This document shows positions 37,828 through 63,762 of a stretch of 64,000 nucleotides of DNA, piece by piece. The notes under the pieces are model-generated. The model was given only the letters and a program-made list of their open reading frames with translations, was not told where the DNA came from and searched no databases. Within the stretch, counting starts at the first letter, position 1. The number at the start of each line of letters is the position of its first letter. The position numbers and the translations under genes were made by a program. The stretch is from Patescibacteria group bacterium (GTDB lineage Bacteria; Patescibacteriota; Patescibacteriia; XYB2-FULL-38-15), in contig JBAZJZ010000001.1 of NCBI GenBank assembly GCA_041650995.1, positions 363,302 to 427,301 of the forward strand. Direction: 5' to 3'.

Positions 37828-37888
37828 GTCATTCCCGCGAAAGCGAGAATCCAGATTACTGGATCCCCGGGTCAAGCCCGAGGATGAC
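37828..37888. mobile_element. MITE-like double-hairpin repeat, copy A
   Basis: GTCATTCCCGCGAAAGCGAGAATCCAG-ATTA-CTGGATCCCCGGGTCAAGCCCGAGGATGAC; terminal inverted repeats GTCAT(T/C)CCC / GGGGATGAC. Confidence 0.65.
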
Positions 37889-37894
37889 AAAATA

Positions 37895-37925
37895 AAAACC
37901 CGACTTTCGTCGGGACTCCGCCTTT
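37895..37925 (-). terminator. terminator after hydrogenase small subunit
   Basis: cccgacgaaagtcggg followed by a T-run on the minus strand. Confidence 0.5.
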
Positions 37926-37942
37926 AAAATCAAATAAAAAAA

Positions 37943-38710
37943 TTATTTTTCAATTCTCAAAAAATCATCCTCCGCGCCATAGGTTTGCATAATTTCCCGG
38001 AGATATTTTTTTCCGACTAATTTCTGAATATTTTTCAAATGTTTTTTAATTTGCGGTCCGGCTCCGGGAAGCGGTCCGCGGCAACCATAACAAAATCTTT
38101 TACTGCGCAAACATATTGCTTTGCATCCGCCAAGAGTGATCGGCCCCATGCATGGCTCCCCTTTTTGCAAAAGACACTCATAACCTTGAGCCTGACACTC
38201 GAAGCACACCGGTCTTTGAGGAATTCTTGGCTCCCGTCCAAAAATAATATCTGAAATAACTCGATAAAATTCATCTTGATCAATCGGGCAGCCTGGAACA
38301 GTGTAATCAACTTTTACCACCTTAGAGAGCGGCACAACTCTGGAATTTTGAATGCGCTGATATTTTGGATAGACGTATTTGACCTTTTCGTTTTTCAATT
38401 GCTCTGAATAATTTTTTATCTCCTGAACTCCGCCCAAATGAGCGCAACTGCCGATGGCCACCAAAATTTTTGATTTTTTTCTCAACTCCTTTAAATATTT
38501 TATGTCTTCCTTGGTAAGCGGCGTCCCTTCAATCACGGCCACGTCATAACTCGGACGCTCCCGTTTTTCTTCCGCCCAAGAAAAATTTCCCAAATCAAAA
38601 ACCTGAAAAAGATCCAATAATCTTTTTCCCAAATTTAGGATTTCCACCTGGCAACCCTCACAACAAGTCATACTGGCAATGGCAAGTGTCGGCTTCGGCA
38701 TATGTTTCAT
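37943..38710 (-). CDS. NiFe hydrogenase small (delta) subunit
   Basis: N-terminal CCEGC cluster motif and further Cys clusters. Confidence 0.8.
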   Translation of the reverse strand: MKHMPKPTLAIASMTCCEGCQVEILNLGKRLLDLFQVFDLGNFSWAEEKRERPSYDVAVIEGTPLTKEDIKYLKELRKKSKILVAIGSCAHLGGVQEIKNYSEQLKNEKVKYVYPKYQRIQNSRVVPLSKVVKVDYTVPGCPIDQDEFYRVISDIIFGREPRIPQRPVCFECQAQGYECLLQKGEPCMGPITLGGCKAICLRSKRFCYGCRGPLPGAGPQIKKHLKNIQKLVGKKYLREIMQTYGAEDDFLRIEK

Positions 38711-38844
38711 TATAGCACTTTTTAAAGGGTATGAAAAACTGTATAATTTAATCAGGATTATGGCCTGAGCCTGTCGAAGGCCAACTTATCAATAGCACCC
38801 CCTTCGACTTCGCTACGCTTCGCTCAGGGAATAAATGGATATAT

Positions 38845-39486
38845 ATGATATTCAAAAATCGCGTGGAAGCTGGCCAAAAATTAGCCGAAACGCTCAAAAA
38901 ATTTAAAGACGCCCAAGGCACGCTTATTTTAGCGCTTCCCCGCGGCGGGGTTGTTGTCGGTTTTGAAGTAGCAAAAACCTTAAGCTTGCCGATGGATATT
39001 ATTGTCCCGCGAAAAATCGGCGCCCCGGGAAATCCGGAATTTGCCATTGGCGCGATTACCGAACAGGGCGTTGGAATTTTTGACGAGATGGTAATTGGCA
39101 CTTACGGAATAACCGAATCGTATTTACAAAATGAAATAAAAAAAGAAAAAGCCGAGGCGGAACGGCGGTTGAAATTATACCGCGGGACTCGTCCGCCACT
39201 AGATTTAAAAAATAAAACGGTCATTATTGTTGATGACGGATTAGCAACCGGAATGACAATGCGCGCGGCCATTAAGACGGCCAAAAAACTCAGAGCGGAA
39301 AAGATTATTGTCGCAATCCCCGTTACCTCGCCCGAAGCGGCAGAATTAGTTAAAAAAGAAGTTGATGAAATAATTTATCTTGAAGCTCCGGCATTTTTCG
39401 GCGCTGTTGGATCTTTTTACGAAGAATTCGGACAAACAACAGATGAGGAAGTAATAGATTTGTTAAAAAAATCGGAAAATTTTTAA
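38845..39486 (+). CDS. phosphoribosyltransferase-family protein
   Basis: PRPP-binding VIIVDDGLATGMT motif. Confidence 0.7.
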   Translation: MIFKNRVEAGQKLAETLKKFKDAQGTLILALPRGGVVVGFEVAKTLSLPMDIIVPRKIGAPGNPEFAIGAITEQGVGIFDEMVIGTYGITESYLQNEIKKEKAEAERRLKLYRGTRPPLDLKNKTVIIVDDGLATGMTMRAAIKTAKKLRAEKIIVAIPVTSPEAAELVKKEVDEIIYLEAPAFFGAVGSFYEEFGQTTDEEVIDLLKKSENF

Positions 39487-39588
39487 AAATAAAAAACCAC
39501 CTCGCCATATCAGTCGTTCAGGCTCGCGCAATGACAAAAAAACAAAACTCCGCCAACCAGCGGAGTTTTAAAATCTATTTTATTAAAT

Positions 39589-40308
39589 TTATAAATACTT
39601 TAACGTCCTCCCAGTCCAATATTCAAGCCGTTGCGCCGTTTCCCTTGAAATAATTTCGACCGCTCTACCCCAATGGTAAGAAACCGTATCCCCAGCTTTA
39701 ACTCGCGGAAGAATCAACGGGTCGCGTTTTATTTCTATCAATTTTTCCTTGCCGATTTTTGGTAAATATTTACCCCGTAATTTTATAAGCGTTTTTGCGC
39801 GTATAACAAGCGCGTCACCCTTAATCAACTTTACTTTTCCCCACCCGATACGGCAAAGTTCTTGGCCAATCGTACCGCGTTCTACCCTGCCGGTAATGCT
39901 ACCAACCACAAAAACGTGAAAGCTATGGTGCGGCCTATGCCTTTTATGAACCCGCGAAGCAATCTTCTCGGCCGCGGCAGCAGTCATTCGTCCTTGATTA
40001 GCAAAACTGCGTACAAGATCAGCTAAATCCTTAGAGCTAACATTTTCTAATAAATTATTTCCAATCCAATAAGCATCAAATACTCGCGGATCAAACCAAT
40101 CGGCGATTTTATTGCTCTCGGCGATAAGTTTAAGATAGGGAGCTAGGGCAATAAATTCTCGAAGAATTTTTTTTAGCTGTGCGTCACTGACTTTATCTGT
40201 CGTCAAATATCGATAAAGTTTCCCCTTCCCTGCTCCCTGCGGCCCGCAAAGACCAAGCTCGTGTGGATGCAGGGAATATTTAACTCCCCTTTTAAGATAT
40301 TTTTTCAT
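39589..40308 (-). CDS. hypothetical protein adjacent to hypC
   Basis: ORF; 4-nt overlap with hypC. Confidence 0.4.
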   Translation of the reverse strand: MKKYLKRGVKYSLHPHELGLCGPQGAGKGKLYRYLTTDKVSDAQLKKILREFIALAPYLKLIAESNKIADWFDPRVFDAYWIGNNLLENVSSKDLADLVRSFANQGRMTAAAAEKIASRVHKRHRPHHSFHVFVVGSITGRVERGTIGQELCRIGWGKVKLIKGDALVIRAKTLIKLRGKYLPKIGKEKLIEIKRDPLILPRVKAGDTVSYHWGRAVEIISRETAQRLEYWTGRTLKYL

Positions 40309-40541
40309 TTTTTAACCCCTCTATTTTTTATTTTTGAAGGCTCACGAAATAATGCCAAAAATTCCTTTGCTTCTGCTTCGGAAATTTTTTTAATCCCCAC
40401 ATCTCCCTGTACCAATATCCACTCTCCCTTCTTTGTCCCCGATAAAAGCGACGTATCAACATTAAAAACCTTGCCACCATTTTTTATGGTGGCCTTATTT
40501 TTAGAAATTTTTTCAATTTTACAGGGGATCCCAAAGCACAT
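40305..40541 (-). CDS. hypC: hydrogenase assembly chaperone HypC/HupF
   Basis: MCFGIP N-terminus (Cys2) typical of HypC; start taken at the internal Met. Confidence 0.65.
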   Translation of the reverse strand: MCFGIPCKIEKISKNKATIKNGGKVFNVDTSLLSGTKKGEWILVQGDVGIKKISEAEAKEFLALFREPSKIKNRGVKK

Positions 40542-40549
40542 AAAAAATC

Positions 40550-41461
40550 TCAAACCTTAAAACTCAAAACTTTTTCTTTTTTAAATTTTGACATCAAATC
40601 TACGACGACAATCACCCCCAAAAATATTATCAAGCTACCAAAGAAAATTTGCCAATCAAAAATTCCTTTCTGCGCCATTTCAAGTAAACTCGTTATCGGC
40701 GCGCCAAGCGCGAGAACGCAGGCCGCCGAAGAAACCGGGATATATTTTAAACCGGCATACCAGGTTAAAACATAGCCCAAGAGGAAAATCGCCGTTATCC
40801 AGACCCAACTTAACTCTGCCACGCTCATACTTCCGAGCAGTTTCATCTGCCCGGTCGCCGTCCAAAAAATAAAAATAAATAAAAATCCAAAAAACATTCT
40901 GCCCCAAGCAACAATTTTTGGAGAAATATTCTCCAATGCTTTTTTAGAAATAATTTGTTCTGCCGCCCAAAATAACGTAGCAACTAAAACTAAAAACTCA
41001 CCATACCCGAATTGTAATCCATTAAAAATTTTCAAAAGAAATATGTTGCCCAAAAGAAGCAATGAAGCACCAATCACTAAATTTTTACTTACTTTTTCTT
41101 TCAAAACTAACACCGCTAAAACAATTACATAAATAAATAAAGTTTTATGGATAAAAGATGTACTCGCCCCGCTTGTCGCGGCCAATCCCTTAAAAAAAAG
41201 TAAAAACGGAATACTGCCGCCAACCAAACCGATTAAAACCAACACCCCCCATTCTTTAATTTTCAATTTTGCCAACAACTTCCATTCCTTAAACCAAAAA
41301 ATTAAGCACAACAAAATTACGGCCACAACTATATTTTTCAAGCCGGTGAAAATATCTGAATTAATAACTTTAACACCGAATTGATTTATAAAAATAGAAA
41401 CGCCGGAAATTATTGCTGTTCCTAAAACTAACAAATATCCCTTCTTCTTATTAATGTTCAT
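40550..41461 (-). CDS. EamA/DMT-family transporter
   Basis: 10-TM, two EamA-like halves. Confidence 0.65.
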   Translation of the reverse strand: MNINKKKGYLLVLGTAIISGVSIFINQFGVKVINSDIFTGLKNIVVAVILLCLIFWFKEWKLLAKLKIKEWGVLVLIGLVGGSIPFLLFFKGLAATSGASTSFIHKTLFIYVIVLAVLVLKEKVSKNLVIGASLLLLGNIFLLKIFNGLQFGYGEFLVLVATLFWAAEQIISKKALENISPKIVAWGRMFFGFLFIFIFWTATGQMKLLGSMSVAELSWVWITAIFLLGYVLTWYAGLKYIPVSSAACVLALGAPITSLLEMAQKGIFDWQIFFGSLIIFLGVIVVVDLMSKFKKEKVLSFKV

Positions 41462-41476
41462 AATAGTTGTTTAATA

Positions 41477-43257: not shown

Positions 43258-43337
43258 ATTTTGAAATTATAGCATAAAATCGCTCGAAAATAAAAATGGG
43301 CTCACAACGTCCCAATCTTTCCACGCGAAAACATCTC

Positions 43338-44024
43338 TCACAAATCGTTTGTCGTCAGTCGTTTGTCGTCAGTCGTTTTCAACCATTTTTTATTCCATTT
43401 TTCCCAATTTTTAAAAATTAAAACACAACCAGCAAAAACTCCGAAGACATCAGCCACTAAATCATTTGCAACATCAATCGCGATCGGCTGGTTGGAATCA
43501 AAAAACATCTCTGTCCCCCACCAAATATCCCCTTGCTCCTGAAAAATTTCCCAAAAAAACGATAAAGCCAAAATCAAAATACTGCTAATCAAAATAACCT
43601 TCACTTTATCCGACACACCATTTTTTATTTTTAAAATTTCATAAAACATCGCCGCCATCACCACAAAAGCAGCCGGAATAATCATGTGGACAAGAAAATC
43701 ATATTCAAAAAATTTTATGTATTTATAAAAATATACAGTGCCGAGGGATGTCGTAAAAAAAATTAACCCGCCGATGCCCAACAAAGTTTCCCCGAAGGCC
43801 TCGGAATAATATTTTTTGACCCGACTTGATTTTGAAATTAAAAATAAAATAAATAAAGAAAAGGCTCCCAAGAGGAAAGTAGTAACTAAATAAAAATTTT
43901 CAAAATACCAATAAACCCCGGCCAAAACAAAAGCCGAAAAGAAAACCGACCAAAAAATAACTTTCATTGCGCGATAAAACATATTCAGAAACATCAAATT
44001 TATTTTATTATAGCACAAAAACAA
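43338..44024 (-). CDS. hypothetical polytopic membrane protein
   Basis: multiple TM helices. Confidence 0.35.
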   Translation of the reverse strand: MFLCYNKINLMFLNMFYRAMKVIFWSVFFSAFVLAGVYWYFENFYLVTTFLLGAFSLFILFLISKSSRVKKYYSEAFGETLLGIGGLIFFTTSLGTVYFYKYIKFFEYDFLVHMIIPAAFVVMAAMFYEILKIKNGVSDKVKVILISSILILALSFFWEIFQEQGDIWWGTEMFFDSNQPIAIDVANDLVADVFGVFAGCVLIFKNWEKWNKKWLKTTDDKRLTTNDL

Positions 44025-44063
44025 AAAGCCGGCCTTTTAGACCGACTTCTGTTTTACCTAAAT

Positions 44064-46507: not shown

Positions 46508-46586
46508 GTAACGGGTAACGCGTAACGGGTAACGCGTACAAGCGTATCAAAAATTACCAATTACTAATTACCAATTACCAATTACT
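46508..46586. repeat. tandem heptanucleotide repeats (GTAACGS)x4 and (CAATTAC)x4-5 filling the tsf-rpsB spacer
   Basis: direct reading of gtaacgggtaacgcgtaacgggtaacgc and attaccaattactaattaccaattaccaattact. Confidence 0.8.
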
Positions 46587-47379
46587 CCGATAAATTATTT
46601 TTTTCTTCCTTCACCTCTTCTGCTTTTGCTTCTTCCTCTTCCACAACGACCGGGGCTGCCGGTTTTTCCGGAGCCGCACCTCTTTTTGCTTCAAACTCCG
46701 CCTTCCCTTCTTTCACGGCCGCGGCCACGAGCCCAACCATCATTTCAATTGCTTTTACCGCGTCGTCGTTTGAGGGAACCGGATAATCAACGTCATCCGG
46801 ATTGATATTTGTGTCACATAACGCGACAACCGGAACCTTTCTTTTTCTCGCTTCAGCCACCGCGGTTTTTTCCGCTTTGACATCAACGACAAAAATCGCT
46901 TCAGGCAATTTTTTTAAAGTTTCAATGCCGCCAACCAATTCTTCCAACTTCACGATTTCTTTTTGAAAATTCAGCTGCTCTTTTTTGGTGTATTTCGCGA
47001 GTCCGCCGGTCGCTGTCTTATTTTTCAAATCAGTGAAGCGGTCCGTTACGGTTTTGATGGTTTTGAAATTCGTGAAAGTTCCTCCGAGCCAACGTGTCGT
47101 GACATAAGGCATGCCGGCATCTTTCGCGTAGCGTTTCACAATTTCTTTGGCCTGCTCTTTTGATCCAACAAAAAGAACAACTCCGCCCGCGGCTGTTGTT
47201 TTTTTAATAAAATCTAGCGCCTCTTTTAATTTTTTTGCCGTTTCTTCTAAGTTGATGATGTGGATATCGCTCCGCTCTCCGAAAATATACGGCTTCATTT
47301 TCGGATGCCATTTAGAAGCCTTGTGCCCAAAATGAACACCGGCCTGGAGCATTTCCAACATTGTTGGGATCTCTGACAT
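46582..47379 (-). CDS. rpsB: 30S ribosomal protein S2 (acidic C-terminal extension)
   Basis: LEAGVHFGH motif; start at MSEIPT. Confidence 0.9.
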   Translation of the reverse strand: MSEIPTMLEMLQAGVHFGHKASKWHPKMKPYIFGERSDIHIINLEETAKKLKEALDFIKKTTAAGGVVLFVGSKEQAKEIVKRYAKDAGMPYVTTRWLGGTFTNFKTIKTVTDRFTDLKNKTATGGLAKYTKKEQLNFQKEIVKLEELVGGIETLKKLPEAIFVVDVKAEKTAVAEARKRKVPVVALCDTNINPDDVDYPVPSNDDAVKAIEMMVGLVAAAVKEGKAEFEAKRGAAPEKPAAPVVVEEEEAKAEEVKEEKNNLSE

Positions 47380-47639: not shown

Positions 47640-48332
47640 TCAGGGCCCGTCGTGACCGTAGACCCTGAAGCGCTCACCGGTCTCCGGCCGTTCGTAGGCC
47701 AGATACCAGGAGACGCCCACGCTGAGCGGATCCTCGCCCGGACGACGTGAACGTGTCGCGTCCACCTCACCGAGCATCAGATCCGTCGGTCGGACCTCCT
47801 CCTTGCGACGCGACGGGAGAAGGAGAATCTCCTCGCGCTTGAGTGCGGTCGGCAGCATGGGTGAGGTGTAGTAGAAGTCGCCCTGGGCCGTCACGTAGAT
47901 CTTGAGCGGCCAGAGCGACTCGCCGCCGTCGTGCGTCCGCAGAACCTTGATCTTGCGAACCAGGTGATCGGTCGGCTGAACCTGATCCATCGGACGGCCC
48001 GGCCGCGGACAGAGTCTGTCCCACTCATCGTCCGAGAGAGGGACATCACAGAAGAAGTTCGGGCAGACACCCAGGATAAGCGGACTGCCGCAGTTCCTAC
48101 AGCGTTCCGGCGTACCACCACAGGTGTGCAGCATCACGCCCCCGCCGATGACGATCTGGCTGGCCTGACACTGAACGTACCGAGCCACCTTGACCACTCG
48201 TACGAAGGGCTCCACGCACTCATTGCCGTAGATGCTGTTCTGGAACAGCACCCGGGCGTAGTGGGCCATGACGCGCCTCTCGGCCGCGAAGCAGCCGACG
48301 CAGATCTCGTTCTGGCTCATCTTCTCCTCCAT
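47640..48332 (-). CDS. G6: GC-rich cassette protein, Cys-rich (multiple CxxC zinc-ribbon-like pairs), 230 aa
   Basis: CVGC..C..C, CGGTPERCRNCG, CPNFFC; high GC at third codon position. Confidence 0.5.
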   Translation of the reverse strand: MEEKMSQNEICVGCFAAERRVMAHYARVLFQNSIYGNECVEPFVRVVKVARYVQCQASQIVIGGGVMLHTCGGTPERCRNCGSPLILGVCPNFFCDVPLSDDEWDRLCPRPGRPMDQVQPTDHLVRKIKVLRTHDGGESLWPLKIYVTAQGDFYYTSPMLPTALKREEILLLPSRRKEEVRPTDLMLGEVDATRSRRPGEDPLSVGVSWYLAYERPETGERFRVYGHDGP

Positions 48333-49376: not shown

Positions 49377-50414
49377 ATGATTCCTGAAATCACTAAAACC
49401 GAAGAAAGATTTAAGGAACTCGAGGCCGAACTTGCCCGCCCCGAGGTGGTTTCCAATCCGGAAAAATTAAAAACCGTTTCCCGAGAATACAGTGACTTAA
49501 AAGAAGTTATGGAAAAAATAAATAAATTTCATAAATTGAAAAAGGCCGAATTGGAAACAGAGGTTATCGCCAAACAGGACGTCGACGAGATGGCGGCCAT
49601 CGCTAAAGAAGAATTAGAAAAAATTCGGCGGGAAAAATCAACGCTTGAAACGGAAATTAAAGAAGAATTAACGCCGAAAGATCCGCTGGACAAAAGAAAT
49701 ATTATCGTGGAAATTCGGGCCGGCGCCGGCGGCGATGAAGCCGCTCTTTTTGCCGCGCAATTATTCAGAATGTATTCGCGCTTCGCCGAGCGCAAAGGCT
49801 GGCAGACAAAATTGATTTCCGCAAACCGGACAGACCTCGGCGGATTCAAAGAAATTATTTTTTCAGTTGAGGGAAAAGGCGCTTGGGGAAATTTAAAATT
49901 TGAAAGCGGCGTGCACCGCGTTCAGCGCGTTCCGGAAACGGAAAAAAGCGGACGAGTCCATACTTCAACCGCCTCTGTCGCCGTTCTTCCAGAAGCCGAA
50001 GAAATTGATATAAAAATTGAACCAAAAGATTTAAGAATTGATACGTTTTTATCCGGCGGCCACGGCGGTCAAAGCGTGCAGACAACTTATTCGGCCGTGC
50101 GTATTACTCATATTCCGACCGGTCTTGTTGTCGCCTGCCAAGACGAACGCTCACAGGCGCAAAATAAAGAAAAAGCCATGCAGGTTTTGCGTTCCCGGCT
50201 TTTTGTAATGGAGCAGGAAAAACGGCAAGCGGCGGAAGTCGCGGCGCGACGTTCGCAAATCGGTTCGGCCATGCGGGCGGAAAAAATCAGAACATATAAT
50301 TTTCCCCAGGACCGCGTTTCCGATCATCGCGTTAAAGAAAGCTGGCACAATATTAATAATGTTATGGATGGCGAACTGGATCAAATTATTGAAGTGTTGA
50401 AAAAGGAAGTGTAA
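49377..50414 (+). CDS. prfA: peptide chain release factor 1
   Basis: GGQ motif; RVQRVPETE (PxT-type, RF1-like); followed by prmC. Confidence 0.8.
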
Positions 50415-50437
50415 AAAATAATAAATATAATAAAAAA

Positions 50438-50462
50438 ACCGGCCGCAAGGCCGGTTTTTTGT
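50438..50462 (+). terminator. prfA terminator
   Basis: accggccgcaaggccggt followed by a T-run. Confidence 0.65.
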
Positions 50463-50469
50463 ATAGAAC

Positions 50470-50547
50470 TTGACAAATTAATCTTTTTATAATATTCTAA
50501 AAACATCAAACAGGGTGGCCTTTCGTTTTTGGCGCGCGCCGAAAACG
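50470..50547 (+). promoter_or_regulatory. G7 promoter (TTGACAAAT.. with TATAAT/TATTCT) and leader hairpin cgtttttggcgcgcgccgaaaacg
   Basis: -35 at 50470-50475; perfect palindrome at 50524-50547. Confidence 0.4.
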
Positions 50548-50622
50548 TGAAGGAAGGTGGCCCTAAATCTCGGCCCGACGGACGGGACGAGTTAAAATAG
50601 GGAAGGTTGAGGAGGATAGGGA

Positions 50623-50832
50623 ATGTTGAATCCGATTTGGGTCGACGGAATACGCCTCGTCGACGACAATGGCCAACCGCTTTGGGCGGATCGTGGCCCC
50701 ATCGAAATTTCGTCGAGGCGACCGCATCAGCCCGGTGGCGAAGGGAATGACGACATGTTCTTCCCGGACGACGAAGAAGCGGCCAGGCGGCGAAGCGACG
50801 CCCGGAAGAGAGACCGTCGGCGCCAGCAGTAG
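50623..50832 (+). CDS. G7: GC-rich small cassette protein (69 aa), acidic then Arg-rich tail
   Basis: GAGGAGGATAGGGA-ATG Shine-Dalgarno; followed by about 150 nt GC-rich untranslated region and a terminator. Confidence 0.4.
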   Translation: MLNPIWVDGIRLVDDNGQPLWADRGPIEISSRRPHQPGGEGNDDMFFPDDEEAARRRSDARKRDRRRQQ

Positions 50833-50987
50833 TATCCCGTCCCACCATCAACGTGAGAGCTGCGAGCTTCGCTCGCCCACTCTCCGTTTCAAGTTCGCGC
50901 CCCCCCTCCCGGAAGCGGCGCGAAGCCCGCGTAGCGGAAAACGGGGAACACGAGTTCCCCGCCCCCCCCTCCTCGCTACCGGGCCCC

Positions 50988-51050
50988 AGCCCGTGGATTG
51001 TTTTGGAGAGATCTCCCCTCCTTCAAGCAGTCCACGGGCTCCTTTTTTTA
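50988..51050 (+). terminator. G7 terminator
   Basis: agcccgtgga...tccacgggct stem followed by a T-run. Confidence 0.5.
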
Positions 51051-51065
51051 TGCTACAATAATCGC

Positions 51066-51950
51066 ATGACAATAAAACAATCTCTCATTTTGGCGACAAA
51101 AATTTTACAAAAAAATAAACTATCCTCCCCTGCTCTGGACGCCGAAGTCCTCCTATCTTTTGTTATAAAAAAACAAAAAGAATTTTTGTACGCACATTCT
51201 GAAAAAAAATTAACCGCGGCGCAATTTTTAAAATTTAAAAAACTGATCGCCCGGCGTTCTAAACATGAGCCTATCGCCTACATCATTGACCACAAATTTT
51301 TCTACGGCCTGAATTTTTTTGTTGATAAAAATGTTTTAATCCCCCGCCCGGAAACGGAAACACTAGTTGAAACTGTAATCGATAAAAATCCAACTGCAGT
51401 CGTTGACGTGGGAACCGGCAGCGGCGTTATTGCCATCTCACTCGCTTATCATCTACCCAAAACGAAAATTTTTGCCACGGAAATTTCGCCGTCCGCGGCC
51501 AAAATTGCGCAAAAAAATATTCTTCATCATAAAGTCACCATTACTTTGCTTCGCGGAAATCTTCTTGAACCTTTTTTAAAAAATTTAAAATCAAAAATAA
51601 AAAACTTAAAATCTTTAATCGTTGTCGCCAATCTCCCCTATCTCAAAACTCGTCAATGGAAAAAAACTCTGCCAGAAATAAAAAAATATGAGCCACGGCA
51701 AGCTCTGGACGGCGGTGAAGATGGTTTGAATTATTACCGCGAACTTTTACAGCAAATCGAATTACTAATTACCGATTACCAATTACCAATTACTTCAATC
51801 TTCGAAATTGATCCATCTCAAAAAAAAACCATTGCGAAATTGGTCAACTGCCGCTTCCCTGCCGCGAAAATTGAAATAAAAAAAGACCTCGCCGGCCGAG
51901 ATCGGGTTGTTATATTTAAAATAAATCCCAAAAAACAATCAATTACTTAA
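51066..51950 (+). CDS. prmC: release factor glutamine methyltransferase PrmC/HemK
   Basis: VGTGSG SAM motif, NLPY (NPPY-type) motif, C-terminal DLAGRDRV; start at MTIKQ after the G7 terminator. Confidence 0.75.
   Translation: MTIKQSLILATKILQKNKLSSPALDAEVLLSFVIKKQKEFLYAHSEKKLTAAQFLKFKKLIARRSKHEPIAYIIDHKFFYGLNFFVDKNVLIPRPETETLVETVIDKNPTAVVDVGTGSGVIAISLAYHLPKTKIFATEISPSAAKIAQKNILHHKVTITLLRGNLLEPFLKNLKSKIKNLKSLIVVANLPYLKTRQWKKTLPEIKKYEPRQALDGGEDGLNYYRELLQQIELLITDYQLPITSIFEIDPSQKKTIAKLVNCRFPAAKIEIKKDLAGRDRVVIFKINPKKQSIT
51759..51793 (+). repeat. five tandem heptamers (NAATTAC) inside the prmC coding sequence
   Basis: gaattac taattac cgattac caattac caattac. Confidence 0.8.
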
Positions 51951-52007
51951 TTACTATTTACCAATTACTGAAATCTGCAAATGGTAATTAGTAACTGGTA
52001 ATTACGG
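51939..52007. repeat. CAATTAC/GTAATTA heptamer repeats arranged as an inverted repeat in the convergent spacer
   Basis: caattacttaattac...tggtaattagtaactggtaattac. Confidence 0.7.
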
Positions 52008-56013: not shown

Positions 56014-56031
56014 ATTTTTATATAGTTAAGT

Positions 56032-56871: not shown

Positions 56872-56972
56872 TCTTCCTTCAATTCCTACTGCCATAATTG
56901 GAATAGCAGGCTTTAGCCTGCGCTTATTTTTCTTACTTCGACGCGAGCTAAAGCTCGCTAATCTATTTTTAT

Positions 56973-57176
56973 ATTATATCAAAAAAATTAAATTAAAACA
57001 AAGGCACTCTGGCAAAAAAAATTCGGCGTGACACCCGGAGTGACACCCTTTAGGGTGTTATTTCAAACAACATTGTAACAGCCTAAAGGCTGTCAGTCCG
57101 ATTTATTAAAAAATAAAAAAACGGCCCCGCTTCATTTCCTTTGCTTTGTGAGCATTAGATTTGAAACGGGGCCAAG
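56973..57176. repeat. conserved structured flank, copy 2 (G8 terminator hairpins plus outward TGATATAAT promoter)
   Basis: about 80% identical to 36829-37014. Confidence 0.7.
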
Positions 57177-57189
57177 GAACCTTCTGTCT

Positions 57190-57250
57190 GTCATTCCCGC
57201 GAAAGCGGGAATCCAGATTACTGGATCCCCGGGTTAAACCCGAGGACGAC
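57190..57250. mobile_element. MITE-like double-hairpin repeat, copy B
   Basis: GTCATTCCCGCGAAAGCGGGAATCCAG-ATTA-CTGGATCCCCGGGTTAAACCCGAGGACGAC. Confidence 0.65.
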
Positions 57251-57264
57251 ATTGAGGTTGTGGG

Positions 57265-57789
57265 CTACGCGGCTTTGCGACGGAGCACCCGAGCGCCGTC
57301 GTCCCAGCCGACGTCGAGCCAGCCCCAGTACTGGTACCAGCGGTCGCCGCGCCAGCGGAGGTACGCCACGCACTCGCGGCCGACGGGGTACCGCATGTCC
57401 GGGAAAACGAAGACGATCTTGCCGCGGAGTGCGGCGGGAATCTCGTCCTGGTGGGCGAGGATGAACTCGCAGTCCTCCTTGCCGAGGTAGGCGCCGAGCT
57501 TCTCGGCGCGGGCGACCATGGTGTGGCCGTGGACGCGCTCCTCGCCCTCCCGGAGAAAGGAGAGGATCTCGTAGGTGCGGCCGCCGACCGTCATTTCGGT
57601 GGGGAGTTCCAGCTCCGTGGGCTTCGCGGGCTGCCTCGCGATGAGTGCGCCATCGAGCGTCGTGGCCAACAAATCCTGATGCAGAATCCAAAATTGGGCC
57701 AACTCCGGCTCCATGTCCCGCGGCAGAGAGCGCAGCACTGCCGCACCGAGTTCCGCAAACTGATCCGTTCCGAGTTTCTTCTTTCCCAT
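57265..57789 (-). CDS. G8: GC-rich cassette protein, paralog of G5 (174 aa)
   Basis: AAGGAGGAAGCG-ATG; conserved block shared with G5. Confidence 0.55.
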   Translation of the reverse strand: MGKKKLGTDQFAELGAAVLRSLPRDMEPELAQFWILHQDLLATTLDGALIARQPAKPTELELPTEMTVGGRTYEILSFLREGEERVHGHTMVARAEKLGAYLGKEDCEFILAHQDEIPAALRGKIVFVFPDMRYPVGRECVAYLRWRGDRWYQYWGWLDVGWDDGARVLRRKAA

Positions 57790-58045
57790 CGCTTCCTCCT
57801 TGGCTTATCCTGGTTCATCTCTTTAGGAGAGGCAGGACTTAAGGAGAGGCAGGACTTACCAAAAGCGGCTGGAACCCTTTCCCAGCCTTGTTTTGATTGT
57901 GCTCCCCTCTTAAGATAAGAGGGGCTGGGGGCGTTATGAATCTTTGTTTTTAAATCTACAACTCATAACCCCTCTTAATCTCCCCTTACCTTAAGGGGAG
58001 AAACCAGAGCACTGCCAAAAGAAAGGTAGAAACTTCCAACGTTTC

Positions 58046-58074
58046 ATAATATTCCATTATTACCTTTTTGTCAA
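58046..58074 (-). promoter_or_regulatory. G8 promoter (GGGATTGACAAAA-17-TATTAT), followed by about 270-nt hairpin-rich leader
   Basis: minus-strand TTGACA at 58074-58069. Confidence 0.5.
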
Positions 58075-58087
58075 TCCCTCTTTTGAT

Positions 58088-58154
58088 GTCATTCCCCGGC
58101 TTGACCGGGGAATCCAGAAATAGGAACTGGATCCCCGATCGGGTCGGGGATGAC
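58088..58154. mobile_element. MITE-like double-hairpin repeat, copy C (variant loops)
   Basis: GTCATTCCCCGGCTTGACCGGGGAATCCAG..CTGGATCCCCGATCGGGTCGGGGATGAC. Confidence 0.65.
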
Positions 58155-58197
58155 AAAAAACAAACTTCTGGCGAAGCTTGTTTTCTCAAAAACATTA

Positions 58198-58206: not shown

Positions 58207-58294
58207 TAAGATAATAAAACTTAGCAAATTATACCCAATTTCCAAGCTCAAAATTCAATAGATTTGAGCTTTGAGTTTTGAGTTTATTTTTATT

Positions 58295-60328
58295 ATGTCT
58301 CCAAAAGTTAAAACCAAAAAAGAAGAATACGGCGCGAAACAAATTACCGTTTTGGAAGGATTGGAAGCAGTCCGTCGCCGGCCGGGTATGTACATTGGTT
58401 CCACCGGCCCGGAAGGTTTGCATCATTTAGTTTGGGAAGTTGTTGATAACTCAATTGATGAAGCCATGGCCGGACACTGCACGGAAATTCAAGTCCGTCT
58501 TTTGCCAGGAAATCGCGCCTCAGTTTCAGATAACGGCCGCGGCATTCCGGTTGAAATTCATAAACAAACAAAAAAATCAGCCTTGGAAACGGTTTTAACA
58601 ATCCTCCACGCCGGCGGAAAATTCGGCGAGGGCGGATATAAAGTTTCCGGTGGTTTGCACGGCGTCGGCGTTTCAGTTGTAAATGCACTTTCAAAATACA
58701 TGCGCGCCGAAGTGAGGCGCGACGGAAAACTTTGGGCGCAAGAATATGCCAAAGGAAAACCTCAGGGAAAAGTAAAACCGGTTGGAAACGCCCGTGGCAC
58801 TGGCACGACAATTATTTTTGAACCTGATCCGGAAATTTTTACCACAACCGATTTTGATTTACAAACTATCCTCACCCATCTTCGCCAGCAGGCCTATCTC
58901 ACCAAGGGCGTAAAAATTTTAATTTTTGATGAACGAACGGCGGAGAAAGGAAAAAAGAAAGACCAACCGACTTATGCTTTTTATTTTGAAGACGGCGTCG
59001 CTTCTTACGTTGGTTTTTTAAACCATCATAAAGAATTAAAACAGGAAAATGTTTTTTATGTTCAAAAAGAATCCGCGGGCGTTGGCGTGGAAGTGGCCGT
59101 TCAATACACTGCTGATTTTAAAGAAACTGTTTACGCGTTTTGCAATAATATTTTTAATCCGGAAGGCGGATCGCACATGGTTGGTTTTCGCACGGCTCTA
59201 ACTCGTGTTTTAAATAACTACGCAAGAACAAAGGGATATTTGAAAGAAAAAGATGAAAACCTGACTGGCGAAGATGTGCGCGAAGGTTTGACTGCCGTCG
59301 TCTCCGTTAAAGTTAAAGATCCGCAATTTGAAGGCCAGACTAAAGCAAAACTCGGCAACCCCGAAGTACGGCCGGCGGTTGATACAATTTTCTCCGAAGC
59401 TCTTACAACATTTTTGGAAGAACATCCGCGCGACGCCGAAGGAATTATTGAAAAAAGTATTTTGGCATCCCGCGCGAGAAACGCGGCTCGTGTCGCGCGC
59501 GAAACAATTTTAAGAAAAGGTGTTTTGGAAGGATTAACTCTTCCTGGAAAACTTTCCGACTGTTCAAGCCGCGAGTCGGAAAAAACTGAACTCTACATCG
59601 TTGAGGGCGATTCCGCCGGCGGTTCGGCAAAACAAGGCCGCGACCGAGATTTCCAGGCGATTTTGCCTCTGCGCGGAAAAATTTTAAACGTGGAACGGGC
59701 GCGCTTGGATAAAATGCTCGCGAACAATGAGATAAAATCATTGATCATTGCCATGGGCACAAACATCGGCGAACAATTTGATATCACAGGCTTAAGATAT
59801 GGAAAAATTATTATTATGACTGATGCCGACGTTGACGGTGCCCACATCCGCACACTACTTTTGACTCTTTTCTTCCGATATTTTCCGGACTTAATTACCA
59901 AAGGACATATTTTCATTGCCCAACCGCCGCTTTATAAAGTTCAATCCGGTAAAGAAGCCCACTATGTTTTCAGTGATGAAGAAAAAGATAAAGTTGTCGC
60001 CGAATTACAGAAGAATAAAAAACCTGATACTAAAAAATTAAAAAGGGAAACTGAAGAAAAAGTAGAAGGTGAGATCGCGGAAGGCGAAGAAGCAACCGCG
60101 ACTATTTCCGGCATCAATATTCAGCGCTACAAAGGTTTGGGCGAAATGAATCCTGAACAACTTTGGGAAACAACCATGAATCCGGCCAGCCGTCTTATGA
60201 AACAAGTAAACGTTCAAGACGCCGCGGCAGCTGATGAAACTTTTAGTATTTTAATGGGCGACGAAGTTGAGCCGCGAAAAAGATTTATTCAGACTCACGC
60301 GAAAGCAGTGAAAAATTTGGATATATAA
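58295..60328 (+). CDS. gyrB: DNA gyrase subunit B
   Basis: GHKL ATPase motifs, Toprim EGDSAGG, C-terminal GyrB tail. Confidence 0.9.
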   Translation: MSPKVKTKKEEYGAKQITVLEGLEAVRRRPGMYIGSTGPEGLHHLVWEVVDNSIDEAMAGHCTEIQVRLLPGNRASVSDNGRGIPVEIHKQTKKSALETVLTILHAGGKFGEGGYKVSGGLHGVGVSVVNALSKYMRAEVRRDGKLWAQEYAKGKPQGKVKPVGNARGTGTTIIFEPDPEIFTTTDFDLQTILTHLRQQAYLTKGVKILIFDERTAEKGKKKDQPTYAFYFEDGVASYVGFLNHHKELKQENVFYVQKESAGVGVEVAVQYTADFKETVYAFCNNIFNPEGGSHMVGFRTALTRVLNNYARTKGYLKEKDENLTGEDVREGLTAVVSVKVKDPQFEGQTKAKLGNPEVRPAVDTIFSEALTTFLEEHPRDAEGIIEKSILASRARNAARVARETILRKGVLEGLTLPGKLSDCSSRESEKTELYIVEGDSAGGSAKQGRDRDFQAILPLRGKILNVERARLDKMLANNEIKSLIIAMGTNIGEQFDITGLRYGKIIIMTDADVDGAHIRTLLLTLFFRYFPDLITKGHIFIAQPPLYKVQSGKEAHYVFSDEEKDKVVAELQKNKKPDTKKLKRETEEKVEGEIAEGEEATATISGINIQRYKGLGEMNPEQLWETTMNPASRLMKQVNVQDAAAADETFSILMGDEVEPRKRFIQTHAKAVKNLDI

Positions 60329-60447
60329 GTGTTAAAGACTTTAAACTTGCGTTATTTTTCCCCTGTGCTATACTTTAGATAAATAGCCCCCAGGGCTGTT
60401 TTAAATACCATAAATTTCGCTAAAAATCGTTTAAAATACATAAAAAT

Positions 60448-60645
60448 ATGCAAGTCTCCATTCCCAGCAACAAATTAACAAATTACTTTCGCGATTCTTA
60501 CAGAGAATTAAAGAAAGTTGTCTGGCCAACAAAGCGTGAAACCATAAACCATACTCTGGTTGTGATTGGCATAAGTTTGGGCGTGGCCATTTTTTTAGGA
60601 GCTCTTGATTTTCTCTTCACCCGGATCCTGGAAAAATATTTATAA
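60448..60645 (+). CDS. secE: preprotein translocase subunit SecE
   Basis: 65 aa, single C-terminal TM, KVVWP motif; upstream of nusG. Confidence 0.8.
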   Translation: MQVSIPSNKLTNYFRDSYRELKKVVWPTKRETINHTLVVIGISLGVAIFLGALDFLFTRILEKYL

Positions 60646-60703
60646 TAAATTTGAAAACATAAATTTTTAACTTTTAATTTGACTGAGCGGAGCGAAGGAA
60701 TAT

Positions 60704-61249
60704 ATGCCTAAACAAATAGCTCAAAGAGGTCGACTCTGGTATGCGATTCACACTTATTCCGGATACGAAGAAAACGTCGCCCATAATTTAAAACAAAGAA
60801 TTGAATCCATGGCAATGCAGGACAAGATTTTTAATGTCTTGATTCCTACCGAGAAAAAGATAAAAATAAAAAACGGCAAGCGCCGAACGGTCATTGAAAA
60901 AATCTTTCCCGGTTATGTTTTGGTGGAAATGCTTGTCACCGACGATTCGTGGTATGTAGTCAGAAATACTCCGAACGTTACCGGCTTTATCGGCACGGGC
61001 ACAATCCCCACTCCCCTTTCTGAAGCTGAGATAAAAGTTTTGCAAAAAAGAATGGGCGAAGAAGAACCGCAATATAAAATTGATGTTACGGTTGGCGCGC
61101 CGGTTAAAATCAATGACGGACCGTTCAAAGGTTTTGAAGGAAAAATTTCCGCCATTGACGAAGCTCGCGGAAAAGTTAAAGTACTGGTAAGTATGTTCGG
61201 CCGCGAAACTCCGGTGGAATTGGATTTCTTACAAGTTAAAAAAATATAA
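60704..61249 (+). CDS. nusG: transcription antitermination factor NusG
   Basis: NGN domain WYAIHTYSGYE; KOW motif. Confidence 0.9.
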   Translation: MPKQIAQRGRLWYAIHTYSGYEENVAHNLKQRIESMAMQDKIFNVLIPTEKKIKIKNGKRRTVIEKIFPGYVLVEMLVTDDSWYVVRNTPNVTGFIGTGTIPTPLSEAEIKVLQKRMGEEEPQYKIDVTVGAPVKINDGPFKGFEGKISAIDEARGKVKVLVSMFGRETPVELDFLQVKKI

Positions 61250-61316
61250 AATAAAAGTGCATTGTTAAATTGCTAAAGGCTTCTAGTTTAGCTCTTAACA
61301 ATCCAACTTAAAAAGT

Positions 61317-61739
61317 ATGGCAAAAAAAATTAAAACAATTATAAAATTACAAATCGAAGCTGGCAAAGCAAATCCAGCGCCGCCAATCGGCCCGGCACTT
61401 GGTCAACACGGTTTGAATATTGCTGAATTCTGCACGAAGTTCAACGCCGCGACTGCTAAAATGGCTGGTGATGTTATTCCCGCGGAAATCACGGTTTTTG
61501 AAGATCGCACCTACACCTTCATTCTAAAAACCCCGCCGGCAGCTGAACTTTTAAAAAAAGCTGCTGGAATTGAAAAGGGTTCGGGAAAACCGCTTCAGGA
61601 AAAAGTTGGAAAAGTGACAAAAGCCCAGATTCGGGAAATCGCCGAGAAAAAAATGCCGGACTTAAACGCGAATGATATTGAAGCGGCGATGAGAATTATT
61701 GAAGGCACGGCAAGACAAATGGGATTGGAAGTAGTTTAA
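61317..61739 (+). CDS. rplK: 50S ribosomal protein L11
   Basis: L11 N-terminal PPIGPALG motif. Confidence 0.9.
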
Positions 61740-61757
61740 AAAATTTAAATTTAAATT

Positions 61758-62198
61758 TTGACTATGGCTTTCAAATTTAGCTCAATTCGAACTGTCTATT
61801 TCTACCTTATTGCCCTGATTTCCTTGATGATGATTGTTTGGGGAACGGTTGATCTCGCGAATCTCGGACTTAGAACTTGGGTTTTTAAAAACGCTGATAA
61901 AGCTGATGACTGGTCAATGCCCGCTCCGTATTACATGACAGCTGAAATAAAAATGGGAGAAACAGCAGAACGCTGCGCGGAAAAATGCGATATGACTGCC
62001 GAGGAAAAACAACAAATTCAAACTTGGCTTGCCGATTACAAAAATTGGCAGGATCAAAATAATCTCCGAAATGCGAGAAAACAAAAAAATGCCGTTCGGG
62101 ATATCTCCATGCTCGTTGTTGCCATTCCCCTATTTATTTGGCACTGGAAAATGATTAGCAAAGAAACTAAAGAGGCAAAAGAAAAGATGGAGTCATAG
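61758..62198 (+). CDS. hypothetical small membrane protein inserted between rplK and rplA
   Basis: two TM helices. Confidence 0.4.
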   Translation: MTMAFKFSSIRTVYFYLIALISLMMIVWGTVDLANLGLRTWVFKNADKADDWSMPAPYYMTAEIKMGETAERCAEKCDMTAEEKQQIQTWLADYKNWQDQNNLRNARKQKNAVRDISMLVVAIPLFIWHWKMISKETKEAKEKMES

Positions 62199-62337
62199 GC
62201 TCCATGTTGTCTGCGACGCTCGGGAAAAGCGCAAGCGCTCTTTCCTCTCGCTATCCTCGACAATAATAAAAAGTTTAATTAAAAAAATAATTTCGTGGGA
62301 GTCCGCCAAGGGCGGACGTTATTACCACCAAAAACTT

Positions 62338-63015
62338 ATGCGCGGAAAACGTTACCAGGAGGCAAAAAAATCTATTGACCCCAAAAAGAGTTATTCTCTC
62401 GCTGAGGCCCTGGACTTAATTAAAAATGGCCCTAAAGAAAAATTTGATGCCGGTGTGGAAGTCCACATCAAACTCGGCATTGATCCTAAAAAGGGCGACC
62501 AGTTAGTGCGCGGCACTTTAGTTTTGCCGCACGGAATCGGTAAGACCAAAAAAATCGCGGCTTTCGTTGAACCGGCTTTGGAAAAAGAAGCAAAAGAGGC
62601 CGGAGCGGAAATTGTCGGTGGCGAAGATTTAATTAAAGAAATTAAATCTTCAGAAAGAGCTAATTTTGAAATCGCCGTGGCCACTCCGACCATGATGGCT
62701 AAATTGGCGCAAATCGCGAAAATTTTGGGTCCAAAAGGTTTGATGCCAAATCCAAAAACAGAAACCGTTAACCCAAATATCAAAAAAATTATTGGTGAAT
62801 TAAAAAAGGGCAAAATCAACTTCAAAAATGATGACGGCGGAAATATCCATCAATTGCTCGGCAAAGTTTCTTACGATAAAGAAAAGCTTTTGGAAAATTT
62901 AACTGCTTTTGTTGAAGCGGTGAAAAAAGCAAAACCCGCCGCGGCCAAAGGCGTTTACATTCAAACCGCGGTGCTTTGTACTACAATGGGTCCGGGAATA
63001 AAACTCAGTGTCTAA
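62338..63015 (+). CDS. rplA: 50S ribosomal protein L1
   Basis: L1 family. Confidence 0.9.
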   Translation: MRGKRYQEAKKSIDPKKSYSLAEALDLIKNGPKEKFDAGVEVHIKLGIDPKKGDQLVRGTLVLPHGIGKTKKIAAFVEPALEKEAKEAGAEIVGGEDLIKEIKSSERANFEIAVATPTMMAKLAQIAKILGPKGLMPNPKTETVNPNIKKIIGELKKGKINFKNDDGGNIHQLLGKVSYDKEKLLENLTAFVEAVKKAKPAAAKGVYIQTAVLCTTMGPGIKLSV

Positions 63016-63155
63016 TCAAAATTTATTTAAAAAACACCCTCTAAACCGGGGTGTTTTTAGTTTGTTTTTAGATGCCATTTTATTCCTAAAATTTTAATTG
63101 CCTATTCTTTTTCATTTTGCTAAAATGTAAGGGCTAACTAACATATAAAATCCAT

Positions 63156-63686
63156 ATGGGAAATTTACAAAATCCTAGAAAAAATCGTTTATCTTGGGAT
63201 GAAACTTTTATGAATATGGCGCTGATCTTGGCACAACGCACCGCCTGCAAATTTCATACCGCCGGAGTCGTCTTGGTTGATAATAACAAAAGAATTGTCT
63301 CGGTCGGCTATAACGGTCCGACTGCTGGCGACGACCATTGTATCGAAGTCGGCTGCGCCAAAGTTGACGGCGATCCGGTCACTGGAAAATTAAAGCGCTG
63401 CCGCGGGGCGCACGCTGAAATAAACAGCATTATCAACGCGCAGGATACAAGAAGATTAAACGGCGCGACGGTTTATACCGCGCTTTACCCTTGCTACGAC
63501 TGCATGAAGGCATTTAACAACGTCGGTATAAAAGAAATCGTTTATTTTGAAAAATATGAACGGATAAAAACTGGCGGCGAAGGAAAAGAAGAAGAAAACG
63601 AAGCGCAGGAGTTGGCCGACAAACGCGGGATTATAATTAGAAAATACGACGGGCCGGTTTATTGCAACATTGATTTTACTGTATAA
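63156..63686 (+). CDS. dCMP/cytidine deaminase-family protein
   Basis: HAEINSI and PCYDCMK zinc-binding motifs. Confidence 0.8.
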   Translation: MGNLQNPRKNRLSWDETFMNMALILAQRTACKFHTAGVVLVDNNKRIVSVGYNGPTAGDDHCIEVGCAKVDGDPVTGKLKRCRGAHAEINSIINAQDTRRLNGATVYTALYPCYDCMKAFNNVGIKEIVYFEKYERIKTGGEGKEEENEAQELADKRGIIIRKYDGPVYCNIDFTV

Positions 63687-63703
63687 ATACGATTTTTATC
63701 AAT

Positions 63704-63762
63704 GTCATCCCCGACCTGATCGGGGATCCAGTAATCTGGATTCCCGCTTTCGCGGGAATGAC
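63704..63762. mobile_element. MITE-like double-hairpin repeat, copy D (opposite orientation)
   Basis: GTCATCCCCGACCTGATCGGGGATCCAG-TAAT-CTGGATTCCCGCTTTCGCGGGAATGAC, reverse complement of the A/B type. Confidence 0.65.

Follow-up and report, generated by a model that had tools for sequence, protein, structure and literature searches.

What are the four short double-hairpin elements scattered through the intergenic gaps of a 64,000-nucleotide stretch of a Patescibacteria-group genome (positions 363,302 to 427,301 of contig JBAZJZ010000001.1; hereafter the window), and what would recognise them? The initial annotation of the window placed them at 37828-37888 (copy A), 57190-57250 (copy B), 58088-58154 (copy C) and, in reverse orientation, 63704-63762 (copy D), and described them as a previously unrecognised repeat resembling miniature inverted-repeat transposable elements (MITEs). 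All four were found at these coordinates and in these orientations, far beyond chance; they form a genuine repeat family dispersed over intergenic DNA, whose members are bounded by terminal inverted repeats and contain two stem-loops that covary. The repeat is not new, since its monomer is the published hairpin known as the "Neisseria Transformation Sequence" (NTS) or, in generalised form, the "Ssn-related motif" (SRM), and its dimer is embedded in the Rfam family FtrB. Our preferred explanation, to which we assign a probability of roughly three in four, is that the elements are inverted, outward-facing pairs of NTS/SRM hairpins that are recognised on single-stranded DNA (ssDNA) by nucleases of the Ssn family, with the mechanism proposed below.

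The four elements match paired Ssn-related motifs

The neisserial repeat dRS3 (ATTCCC-N8-GGGAAT) was redefined by Chenal et al. (2025, Nat Commun 16:2388, PMC11893778) as part of a 28-nt oriented hairpin, the NTS (CGTCATTCCCGCGMAVGCGGGAATCYRG), and generalised, in a survey of RefSeq representative genomes, as the SRM pattern HGTCWYN(0-2)YYVSBRHN(0-5)WNVSBRGN(0-2)RNCYNB. SsnA, a GIY-YIG nuclease of 94 aa with a single domain (cd10448), binds and cleaves at NTS and SRM, on ssDNA only and on one strand only, with no action on RNA (PMC11893778). Mutagenesis indicated that binding requires a C directly 3' of the palindrome and that cutting, which in experiments on the Neisseria and Wolbachia enzymes falls just 5' of the hairpin, requires GTC directly 5' (PMC11893778).

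In a scan of the window, seven of the eight half-sites (two per element) match the SRM pattern, compared with a mean of 0.1 and a maximum of 2 in shuffled sequences, and the eighth, the right half of copy B, misses it solely at the W position (GTCGT). The 5' GTC and the 3' C are kept in all eight, and every mapped determinant is intact in six. Three half-sites differ from the NTS consensus by one or two mismatches in 28; exact dRS3 occurs at 57193-57212 and 63740-63759 and, with one mismatch, at 37831-37850, and in the other five, which are SRM but not strict dRS3, the arms read ATCCCC/GGGGAT or the loops are longer. The likeness to dRS3 that the initial annotation remarked on is thus well founded, and its reservation that the host is unrelated falls away because the SRM-repeat family spans many phyla. 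Judged by sequence, each "double-hairpin MITE" is two SRM hairpins arranged tail to tail, with GTCAT facing outward and CCAG inward. The core ATCCAG-N(1-14)-CTGGAT occurs four times in the window (0.01 expected), and half-sites of the form GTCATYCCC-N-GGGRAT occur five times (0 expected). No fifth copy was found in the window or in ~10 kb on each side, and the eight half-sites occupy four intergenic positions, with none inside an open reading frame (ORF).

The hairpins fall into three subtypes, a (GCGAAAGCG), b (GGCTTGACC) and c (GACCTGATC). Copy A (37828-37888, plus strand), both halves of which match the SRM pattern, joins a left half-site of subtype a (37827-37854, plus; GCGAAAGCG, with one stem mismatch, GCGAGAAT, and two mismatches to the NTS) through the spacer ATTA to a right half-site of subtype b (37859-37889, minus; GGGCTTGACCC). 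Copy B (57190-57250, plus), in the 3' untranslated region (UTR) of a GC-rich ORF that we call G8, pairs a left half-site of subtype a (57189-57216, plus; exact dRS3 core, one mismatch to the NTS) across the spacer ATTA with a degenerate right half-site of subtype b (~57221-57251, minus), and its right end reads GGACGAC, GTCAT having become GTCGT. Copy C (58088-58154, plus), between the divergent promoters of G8 and gyrB, consists of a left half-site of subtype b (58087-58117, plus; CGGCTTGACCG) and a right half-site of subtype c (58127-58155, minus; GACCCGATC) separated by a 9-nt spacer (AAATAGGAA). Copy D (63704-63762, minus) has a half-site of subtype c (63703-63731, plus; GACCTGATC), then the spacer TAAT and a half-site of subtype a (63736-63763, minus; exact dRS3 core, one mismatch to the NTS). 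The architecture first described for all four copies therefore holds overall, except that copy C has its 9-nt spacer instead of (A)TTA, copy A a stem mismatch and copy B the GTCGT end, and the terminal inverted repeats, given as 9 bp, agree at eight of nine positions in elements of 60-67 bp.

As ssDNA, each copy folds so that a GTCAT/ATGAC terminal stem encloses hairpins 1 and 2 with an ATCCAG/CTGGAT hairpin between them, with z-scores against shuffled sequences from -3.9 to -6.4 (copy A, -3.9 on the plus strand and -5.0 on the minus strand; copy B, -5.0; copy C, -4.9; copy D, -6.4 and -5.5). Copies A and B combine subtypes a and b, copy C combines b and c, and copy D combines c and a. Three different pairings of three subtypes favour modular recombination over the copying of a single fixed unit, and the four copies are not one local duplication, the competing origin that the initial annotation had named. 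Only copies A and B, among the four, look like direct copies of each other (90% identity over 70 nt).

The dimer occurs across bacterial phyla, with covarying stems and sharp ends

When the genomes of 185,579 species were scanned for the dimer architecture, at least 120 stretches matched, from Patescibacteria, Planctomycetota, Gemmatimonadota, Omnitrophota, Nitrospirota, Chloroflexota, Proteobacteria and others. Hosts among the matches listed include Janthinobacterium, cultured Iodobacter, Deefgea, Ramlibacter, Kiritimatiellia, Bdellovibrionota and Elusimicrobia and, within Patescibacteria, Roizman-, Magasanik-, Taylor-, Berkel-, Gracili- and Saccharibacteria. The stretches hold 92 full dimers built from few hairpin subtypes, the same as those of the window, and the element is the sole similarity between the window and those loci (87-95% identity). 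The fetched loci also contain 100 isolated SRMs; half-elements thus occur alone as well. Among close SRM pairs, 46 face outward and none the opposite way, a count for which the search pattern, which demanded the dimer, favoured the outward orientation. No dimers were found in 2.9 million viral contigs. In Neisseria, dRS3 flanks RS units of 50-150 bp in mosaic arrays (neisserial intergenic mosaic elements, NIME) and is the integration target of Nf prophages, whereas here the hairpins are paired tail to tail with no RS units, arrays or phage; no NIME-type arrays or RS units were found around the copies, and the host does not belong to the Neisseriaceae. Peptide strings encoded by the repeat (e.g. 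AFAGMT, PRKRES) returned no literature matches.

In the initial annotation the stems were said to vary while keeping complementarity, and the wider set of sequences agrees. Over 77 distinct 28-nt half-sites, 98.4% of cells pair in the 8-bp stem, compared with at most 56% in slid controls, and there are 55 compensatory cells, at three varying positions, compared with 16.9 in shuffles. Strand asymmetry of the stem mismatches (15 G·T vs 10 A·C) was not significant.

The ends of the element are sharp in 95 dimers, the boundary falling between Y and GTCAT on one side and between ATGAC and R on the other. A check for target-site duplications (TSDs), suggested at the outset, found none beyond the control in these dimers: 87 of the 95 have no abutting direct repeat, and the distribution equals that of shuffled sequence. 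Orthologous sites are available for two copies. At the copy A site, between NiFe-hydrogenase subunit genes, the flanks tttgtcaaccccattt ... aaaaacccgactttcgtcggg are conserved; the window carries the dimer there and a Falkowbacteria MAG (metagenome-assembled genome; locus L127) carries a different hairpin element. At the copy C site, beside gyrB, locus L125 (GCA_964649075.1) is without ~100 nt spanning the dimer. The occurrence of orthologous sites without dimers in related Patescibacteria indicates that the dimers come and go. A candidate scar at the copy C site of L125 (GTATTCCCAGTAATCCCC) was set aside as too short to tell from chance.

A proposed mechanism with one cleavable site per strand

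The elements share with the NTS/SRM-Ssn system the half-site sequence and hairpin, the conserved 5' GTC and 3' C, an intergenic position and multiple copies. They differ from it in occurring here solely as outward-facing inverted dimers with an ATCCAG-N-CTGGAT centre, in a Patescibacteria MAG, at low copy number and with no ssn gene within the 83.5 kb that we read (the window and its flanks, ~15% of the 567-kb contig). We propose that when the locus becomes single-stranded, during replication, in incoming transforming DNA or perhaps by cruciform extrusion, a single cleavable site would be exposed on each strand of the dimer, just outside the element at that strand's 5' end; with one forward site per strand, an Ssn enzyme would nick both strands, each at or beside the end of the element that is 5' on it. 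The dimers would be repeats of a selfish or domesticated kind, entering permissive intergenic gaps by a route, based on ssDNA or on recombination, that leaves no duplication, and halves would be exchanged between dimers by recombination. Integration of transforming DNA that bears the repeat is reduced, and an NTS-gene-NTS configuration lowers gene replacement in Neisseria (PMC11893778). G8, bracketed by copies B and C, would represent an SRM-gene-SRM configuration, and the practical effect of the dimers would probably be on recombination and DNA uptake around the genes that they flank, not on transcription. In this proposal, ssDNA-only, strand-specific binding and cutting are taken from the experiments on the Neisseria and Wolbachia enzymes; motif identity, covariation, the dimer across phyla, presence or absence at orthologous sites, the lack of TSDs and linkage to a GIY-YIG gene elsewhere come from the present analysis. 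Ssn-dependent mobility of the dimers is plausible.

That linkage was observed in the fetched loci. A 95-aa GIY-YIG ORF (PF01541, E ~1e-16) is present in two of 120, L065 and L045, and in L065, from Saccharibacteria, the gene (E = 5e-16) lies between an SRM dimer and an SRM monomer; an SRM-ssn-SRM layout has been reported for 42% of homologs (PMC11893778). Tyr9, Tyr20 and Glu67 of the L065 protein appear to be spaced exactly as Y6, Y17 and E64, the residues mutated in SsnA of Neisseria meningitidis (Nm). The family of this protein comprises at least 7,998 members at E < 1e-5, and the best 120 of these, 72-100% identical to the query, come from Patescibacteria, Portnoy- and Staskawiczbacteria and Omnitrophota. 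Conservation of the nuclease across phyla parallels that of the repeat, which suggests that the pair travels horizontally.

A more far-reaching proposal can be made tentatively, as possible and not as probable: the dimer might be what moves in a system of transposition or homing that is driven by a GIY-YIG enzyme, works on ssDNA and leaves no duplication, and that has spread horizontally with the highly conserved ~95-aa nuclease across most bacterial phyla, including Patescibacteria with their reduced genomes, as a counterpart of the system in which inverted doublets of repetitive extragenic palindromic (REP) sequences, or REPINs, are mobilised by REP-associated tyrosine transposases (RAYTs). 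Presence or absence at orthologous sites, the lack of TSDs, sharp ends at or near the reported SsnA cut, the shuffling of halves and the identity across phyla of the element (87-95%) and of the nuclease (72-89%) are compatible with such a system, in which the dimers may gate recombination of DNA taken up from hosts in Patescibacteria.

Several observations weigh against the preferred explanation. Neither a regular expression nor tblastn matched an ssn or GIY-YIG gene in the 83.5 kb (the probe, a cd10448-like consensus, served for fishing only, and matches were verified by Pfam), and none of the 120 best Ssn homologs, out of at least 7,998, lies on the 567,161-bp source contig. The density of four dimers in 83.5 kb is far under the hundreds of copies in genomes with expanded systems. 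One half-site is degenerate (copy B right) and one is stem-mismatched (copy A left), and the inner stems of subtypes b and c are unlike that of the NTS; altering the palindrome while keeping the hairpin abolished the activity of Nm SsnA (PMC11893778), so recognition of these subtypes would need a co-adapted enzyme. Ssn-dependent mobility is a hypothesis only in PMC11893778, drawn by analogy to IS200/IS605 and to REP and bacterial interspersed mosaic elements (BIMEs), and the inverted-dimer form is absent from the discussion in that paper. A cognate nuclease in this genome is therefore putative, and the copies could be orphans.

Alternative explanations

The alternative that survives best is that the copies are orphan relics, that is, SRM dimers acquired earlier or with transferred DNA and now inert without a resident Ssn nuclease. 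We consider it unlikely. It would fit the lack of an ssn gene in the 83.5 kb, the low density and the damaging change carried by two of the eight half-sites, but the six others are intact in every mapped determinant, the ssn search covered only ~15% of the contig, and the 90% identity of copies A and B suggests fairly recent copying.

A function at the level of RNA, either as a transcribed small RNA (sRNA) like FtrB or as an mRNA-stabilising or translational hairpin, seems to us distinctly improbable. Weak Rfam matches fall at 37801-37909 and 57174-57268 (RF02748 FtrB, RF02625 WsnRNA46, RF02810 Lst_thermometer). Copy A is a weak full-length match to FtrB, a detected 115-nt Francisella transcript (39.3 bits, E = 1.8e-5; gathering score 66), copy B weakly matches FtrB (25.3 bits) and WsnRNA46, and copies B and D lie inside transcription units, D 7 nt before a start codon. 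These matches, to families from Francisella, Wolbachia and Neisseria, appear to arise solely through embedded SRM hairpins. The FtrB consensus holds GUCAUUCCCGCGUAGGCGGGAAUC...GAUCCCCGUGUCAAGCACGAGGAU, an inverted SRM dimer of subtypes a and b. It is more likely that FtrB is a repeat copy with a transcript than that the repeat represents an sRNA gene. FtrB differs from the copies in the window, which score 39 against 66 bits at best and are mostly not positioned as discrete sRNAs, in having extra flanking stems and a CTC/GAG centre and in being defined as a transcript. Copy A lies between a terminator and a promoter and copy C between divergent promoters, with no obvious transcript; the element is symmetric and found in both orientations; deletion of ftrB gave no growth, stress or virulence phenotype; and SsnA is inactive on RNA (PMC11893778). 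Two of the copies lie within transcription units and two do not, which points to an element that works at the level of DNA.

Among all called genes in the 83.5 kb, precomputed Pfam annotation includes no GIY-YIG protein, no Y1/RAYT, DDE or IS110 transposase and no integrase, and the Pfam-annotated neighbours across the window and flanks are ordinary Patescibacteria housekeeping genes. It is highly improbable that the dimers are REPINs, mobilised by a RAYT of the IS200/IS605 type (Y1 HUH transposase). The 5' motif typical of REP sequences is GTAG, and REPINs are described as lineage-specific; the conserved 5' motif here is GTC(A/W)Y, the element is conserved across phyla, no Y1_Tnp or RAYT is annotated in the 83.5 kb, and the gene flanked by the repeats in L065, like that in L045, encodes a GIY-YIG enzyme and not an HUH Y1 transposase. 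What the two systems have in common is hairpin monomers, inverted dimers (four here, 92 elsewhere), no TSD, intergenic clustering, a cognate gene flanked by its own repeats and a presumed recognition of ssDNA, and the analogy is drawn in the Ssn paper itself (PMC11893778).

There is a very slim chance that the elements are recombination or attachment sites bounding mobile cassettes, either attC-like or targets of an IS110/Piv-type recombinase. The idea has some appeal because G8 is bracketed by copies B and C, copy A abuts G5, a paralog of G8, and dRS3 is a known phage-recombinase target (neisserial Nf prophages, as cited in PMC11893778). The initial annotation had likewise asked whether copies mark the boundaries of GC-rich cassettes. 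They do not: no SRM was found at the orthologous G5/G8 cassettes in loci L125 to L128, including a Parcubacteria locus, although in L125 the neighbour of gyrB is a G8 ortholog and in L127 the hydrogenase subunit genes enclose a G5 ortholog, and the other GC-rich cassettes of the window have no SRM. In a survey of 56 loci of the G5/G8 family from other genomes and metagenomes (144 kb), an SRM-like hairpin lies near the cassette in one or two (L136, genuine but cut off by the contig end; L171, a variant), and the other 54 have none nearby. On these grounds we ruled out SRM as a general boundary marker of G5/G8-type cassettes. The 83.5 kb contain no integrase or recombinase and the viral contigs no dimer, which also speaks against attachment sites.

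Least probable of all is a classical MITE, a deletion derivative of an insertion sequence (IS) encoding a DDE transposase and mobilised in trans via its terminal inverted repeats: like bacterial MITEs such as Correia elements, the repeat is small (60-67 bp), intergenic, multi-copy, sometimes promoter-adjacent, bounded by terminal inverted repeats (8/9) and present or absent at orthologous sites, which is what the label "MITE-like" rightly captured, but it leaves no TSD in 95 dimers, has no transposase or parent IS in the 83.5 kb, is near-identical across phyla, unlike lineage-specific MITEs, consists of modular halves that recombine and also occur alone (the 100 isolated SRMs), and flanks, in the sole case found, a GIY-YIG nuclease gene.

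Genomic context of the copies

The host MAG has 41% GC (locus tags WC445_02390, WC445_02275), and its contig measures 567 kb at NCBI and 147.8 kb at ENA. G5 (37081-37542, minus strand; 153 aa) separates the genes for the small and large subunits of the NiFe hydrogenase, and G8 (57265-57789, minus strand; 174 aa), flanked by copies B and C, belongs to a family found only in Patescibacteria. Both ORFs have ~67% GC and no Pfam family, and their C-terminal two-thirds show 85-92% nucleotide identity. Each has a sigma-70 promoter with 11 of 12 matches, a long leader and a long-hairpin terminator. As first annotated, copies A and C sit upstream of these minus-strand promoters: the G5 promoter (TTGACA-17-TATATT with an extended -10 TG; 37785-37813) is 14 nt from copy A, which lies between it and the intrinsic terminator of the hydrogenase small-subunit gene (37899-37914, minus), and the G8 promoter (TTGACA-17-TATTAT; 58046-58074) is 13 nt from copy C. 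The placement of copy B was also correct, between the G8 stop codon (57265-57267) and the G8 terminator (57114-57174, minus), an interrupted hairpin, GGCCCCG...CGGGGCC, with a U-run (-31.2 kcal/mol, z = -4.1). Copy D occupies an 83-nt intra-operon spacer between the dCMP deaminase and dCTP deaminase/dUTPase-family genes, as gene annotation confirms, with 7 nt left between its end and the next ATG (63770). Copies A and C are thus outside transcription units and B and D inside. The right arm of copy D (GCGGGAATGAC, 63754-63772) holds the sole purine-rich stretch resembling a Shine-Dalgarno sequence (GGGAA), inside the hairpin stem, an arrangement by which translation of the dCTP deaminase/dUTPase-family gene might be tied to the repeat.

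The G5/G8 cassettes are, judging by their orthologs, old residents, and the closeness of SRM dimers to them most likely reflects unusually roomy non-coding DNA around the cassettes. Cassette flanks are hotspots where several kinds of small hairpin element come and go. In the window, the G8 leader contains the hairpin element TCTCCCCTTACCTTAAGGGGAGA (57979-58001), which in L127 is found at exactly the copy A site (~3625-3660); it is another kind of small element that competes with copy A for one intergenic hotspot. A further inverted hairpin dimer of the GTCAT type, GTCATTGCGAG...GAAGCAATC...GATTGC...CTCGCAATGAC, is present in related Patescibacteria, in the leader of G8 and downstream (L125, 3650-3740 and ~4610-4720; L126; L161, ~1024). 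This dimer has no SRM match yet shares the GTCAT-hairpin-(A)ATC design, and another Ssn paralog could be the enzyme that recognises it. Inverted hairpin pairs of a second family, whose loops are TTTA/TAAA (e.g. GTGACACGCTTTAGCGTGTTAC...TAACAGCCTAAAGGCTGTCAG), occur at 36878-36930, 57036-57097 and 56906-56958, downstream of the G5 and G8 terminators, and their stems covary from one of these two loci to the other (CACGC/GCGTG vs CACCC/GGGTG).

Small ORF cassettes of 60-69% GC are interspersed among housekeeping operons at 9954-10703, 14308-14758, ~20100-21000, 37081-37542 (G5), 47640-48332, 50381-51061 and 57265-57789 (G8), and Pfam matches none of the cassette ORFs. Close inspection of three (G5, G8 and 47640-48332) showed that each is served by its own TTGACA promoter, near the consensus, and by a strong terminator. 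The G5/G8 family comprises 43 proteins, is restricted to Patescibacteria and syntenic across classes, and has a GC content of 0.59-0.67 in the genomes checked. On the strand opposite G5, the gene caller of the ENA record placed a 237-aa ORF (37048-37761, plus; 15497-16210 of L130); homology and NCBI favour the 153-aa minus-strand G5, and the 237-aa call is a typical mis-call in a GC-rich island. An AF2 model of G8 (m6548a7e89297; pLDDT 85.6, with residues 61-170 above 90) gives weak but consistent matches to C-type-lectin-like folds (the C-terminal domain of Bd2740, BDCA2, snaclecs), and the last ~35 residues of the family are hypervariable between conserved Trp, Gly and Arg positions. A diversity-generating retroelement, considered on account of the weak lectin-like fold match and hypervariable C-terminus, was rejected on the evidence at hand: the differences between G5 and G8 are not adenine-specific, and there is no reverse transcriptase in the 83.5 kb.

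In the cassette leaders, the conserved motif GAAAGAAGGCUGGGAA (sense) can pair, G·U pairs included, with UUUCCCGGUUUUCUUUC ~100 nt upstream, enclosing a variable insert (G5, 37612-37628 vs 37729-37745; an equivalent at 57880-57893 in G8, and also in L125 and L127). The two may form a long-range stem that is conserved in the 5' UTR of the cassettes; no Rfam family matches. Tandem heptads AATTACY (e.g. AATTACCAATTACTAATTACCAATTACC) occur near gene boundaries at 35165-35218, 46552-46591, 51760-51799 and 51933-51974. A direct repeat, TTGAGC(T/G)TTGAGTTTTGAGTTT, just upstream of the gyrB start (58220-58290) is near-identical in L125 (3340-3400) and may be a conserved gyrB leader or regulatory element.

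Implications for the Ssn/SRM system

Identification of the elements as paired SRM hairpins removes a false "new repeat family" and attaches in its place a name that carries a mechanism. Our results suggest that FtrB is, and WsnRNA46 probably is, made up of transcribed copies of this repeat and not a dedicated sRNA gene. What is new here is the Patescibacteria host lineage and an outward-facing dimer architecture that is now made explicit: NTS/SRM hairpins commonly occur in outward-facing inverted dimers, an arrangement that would let Ssn cleave each strand at one site, the two sites being at or beside the two ends of the element. Filled and empty orthologous sites without TSDs are material for testing the mobilisation of repeats by Ssn. 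The Ssn/SRM system extends beyond the original RefSeq survey to the Patescibacteria (candidate phyla radiation, CPR), organisms that are dependent on DNA uptake.

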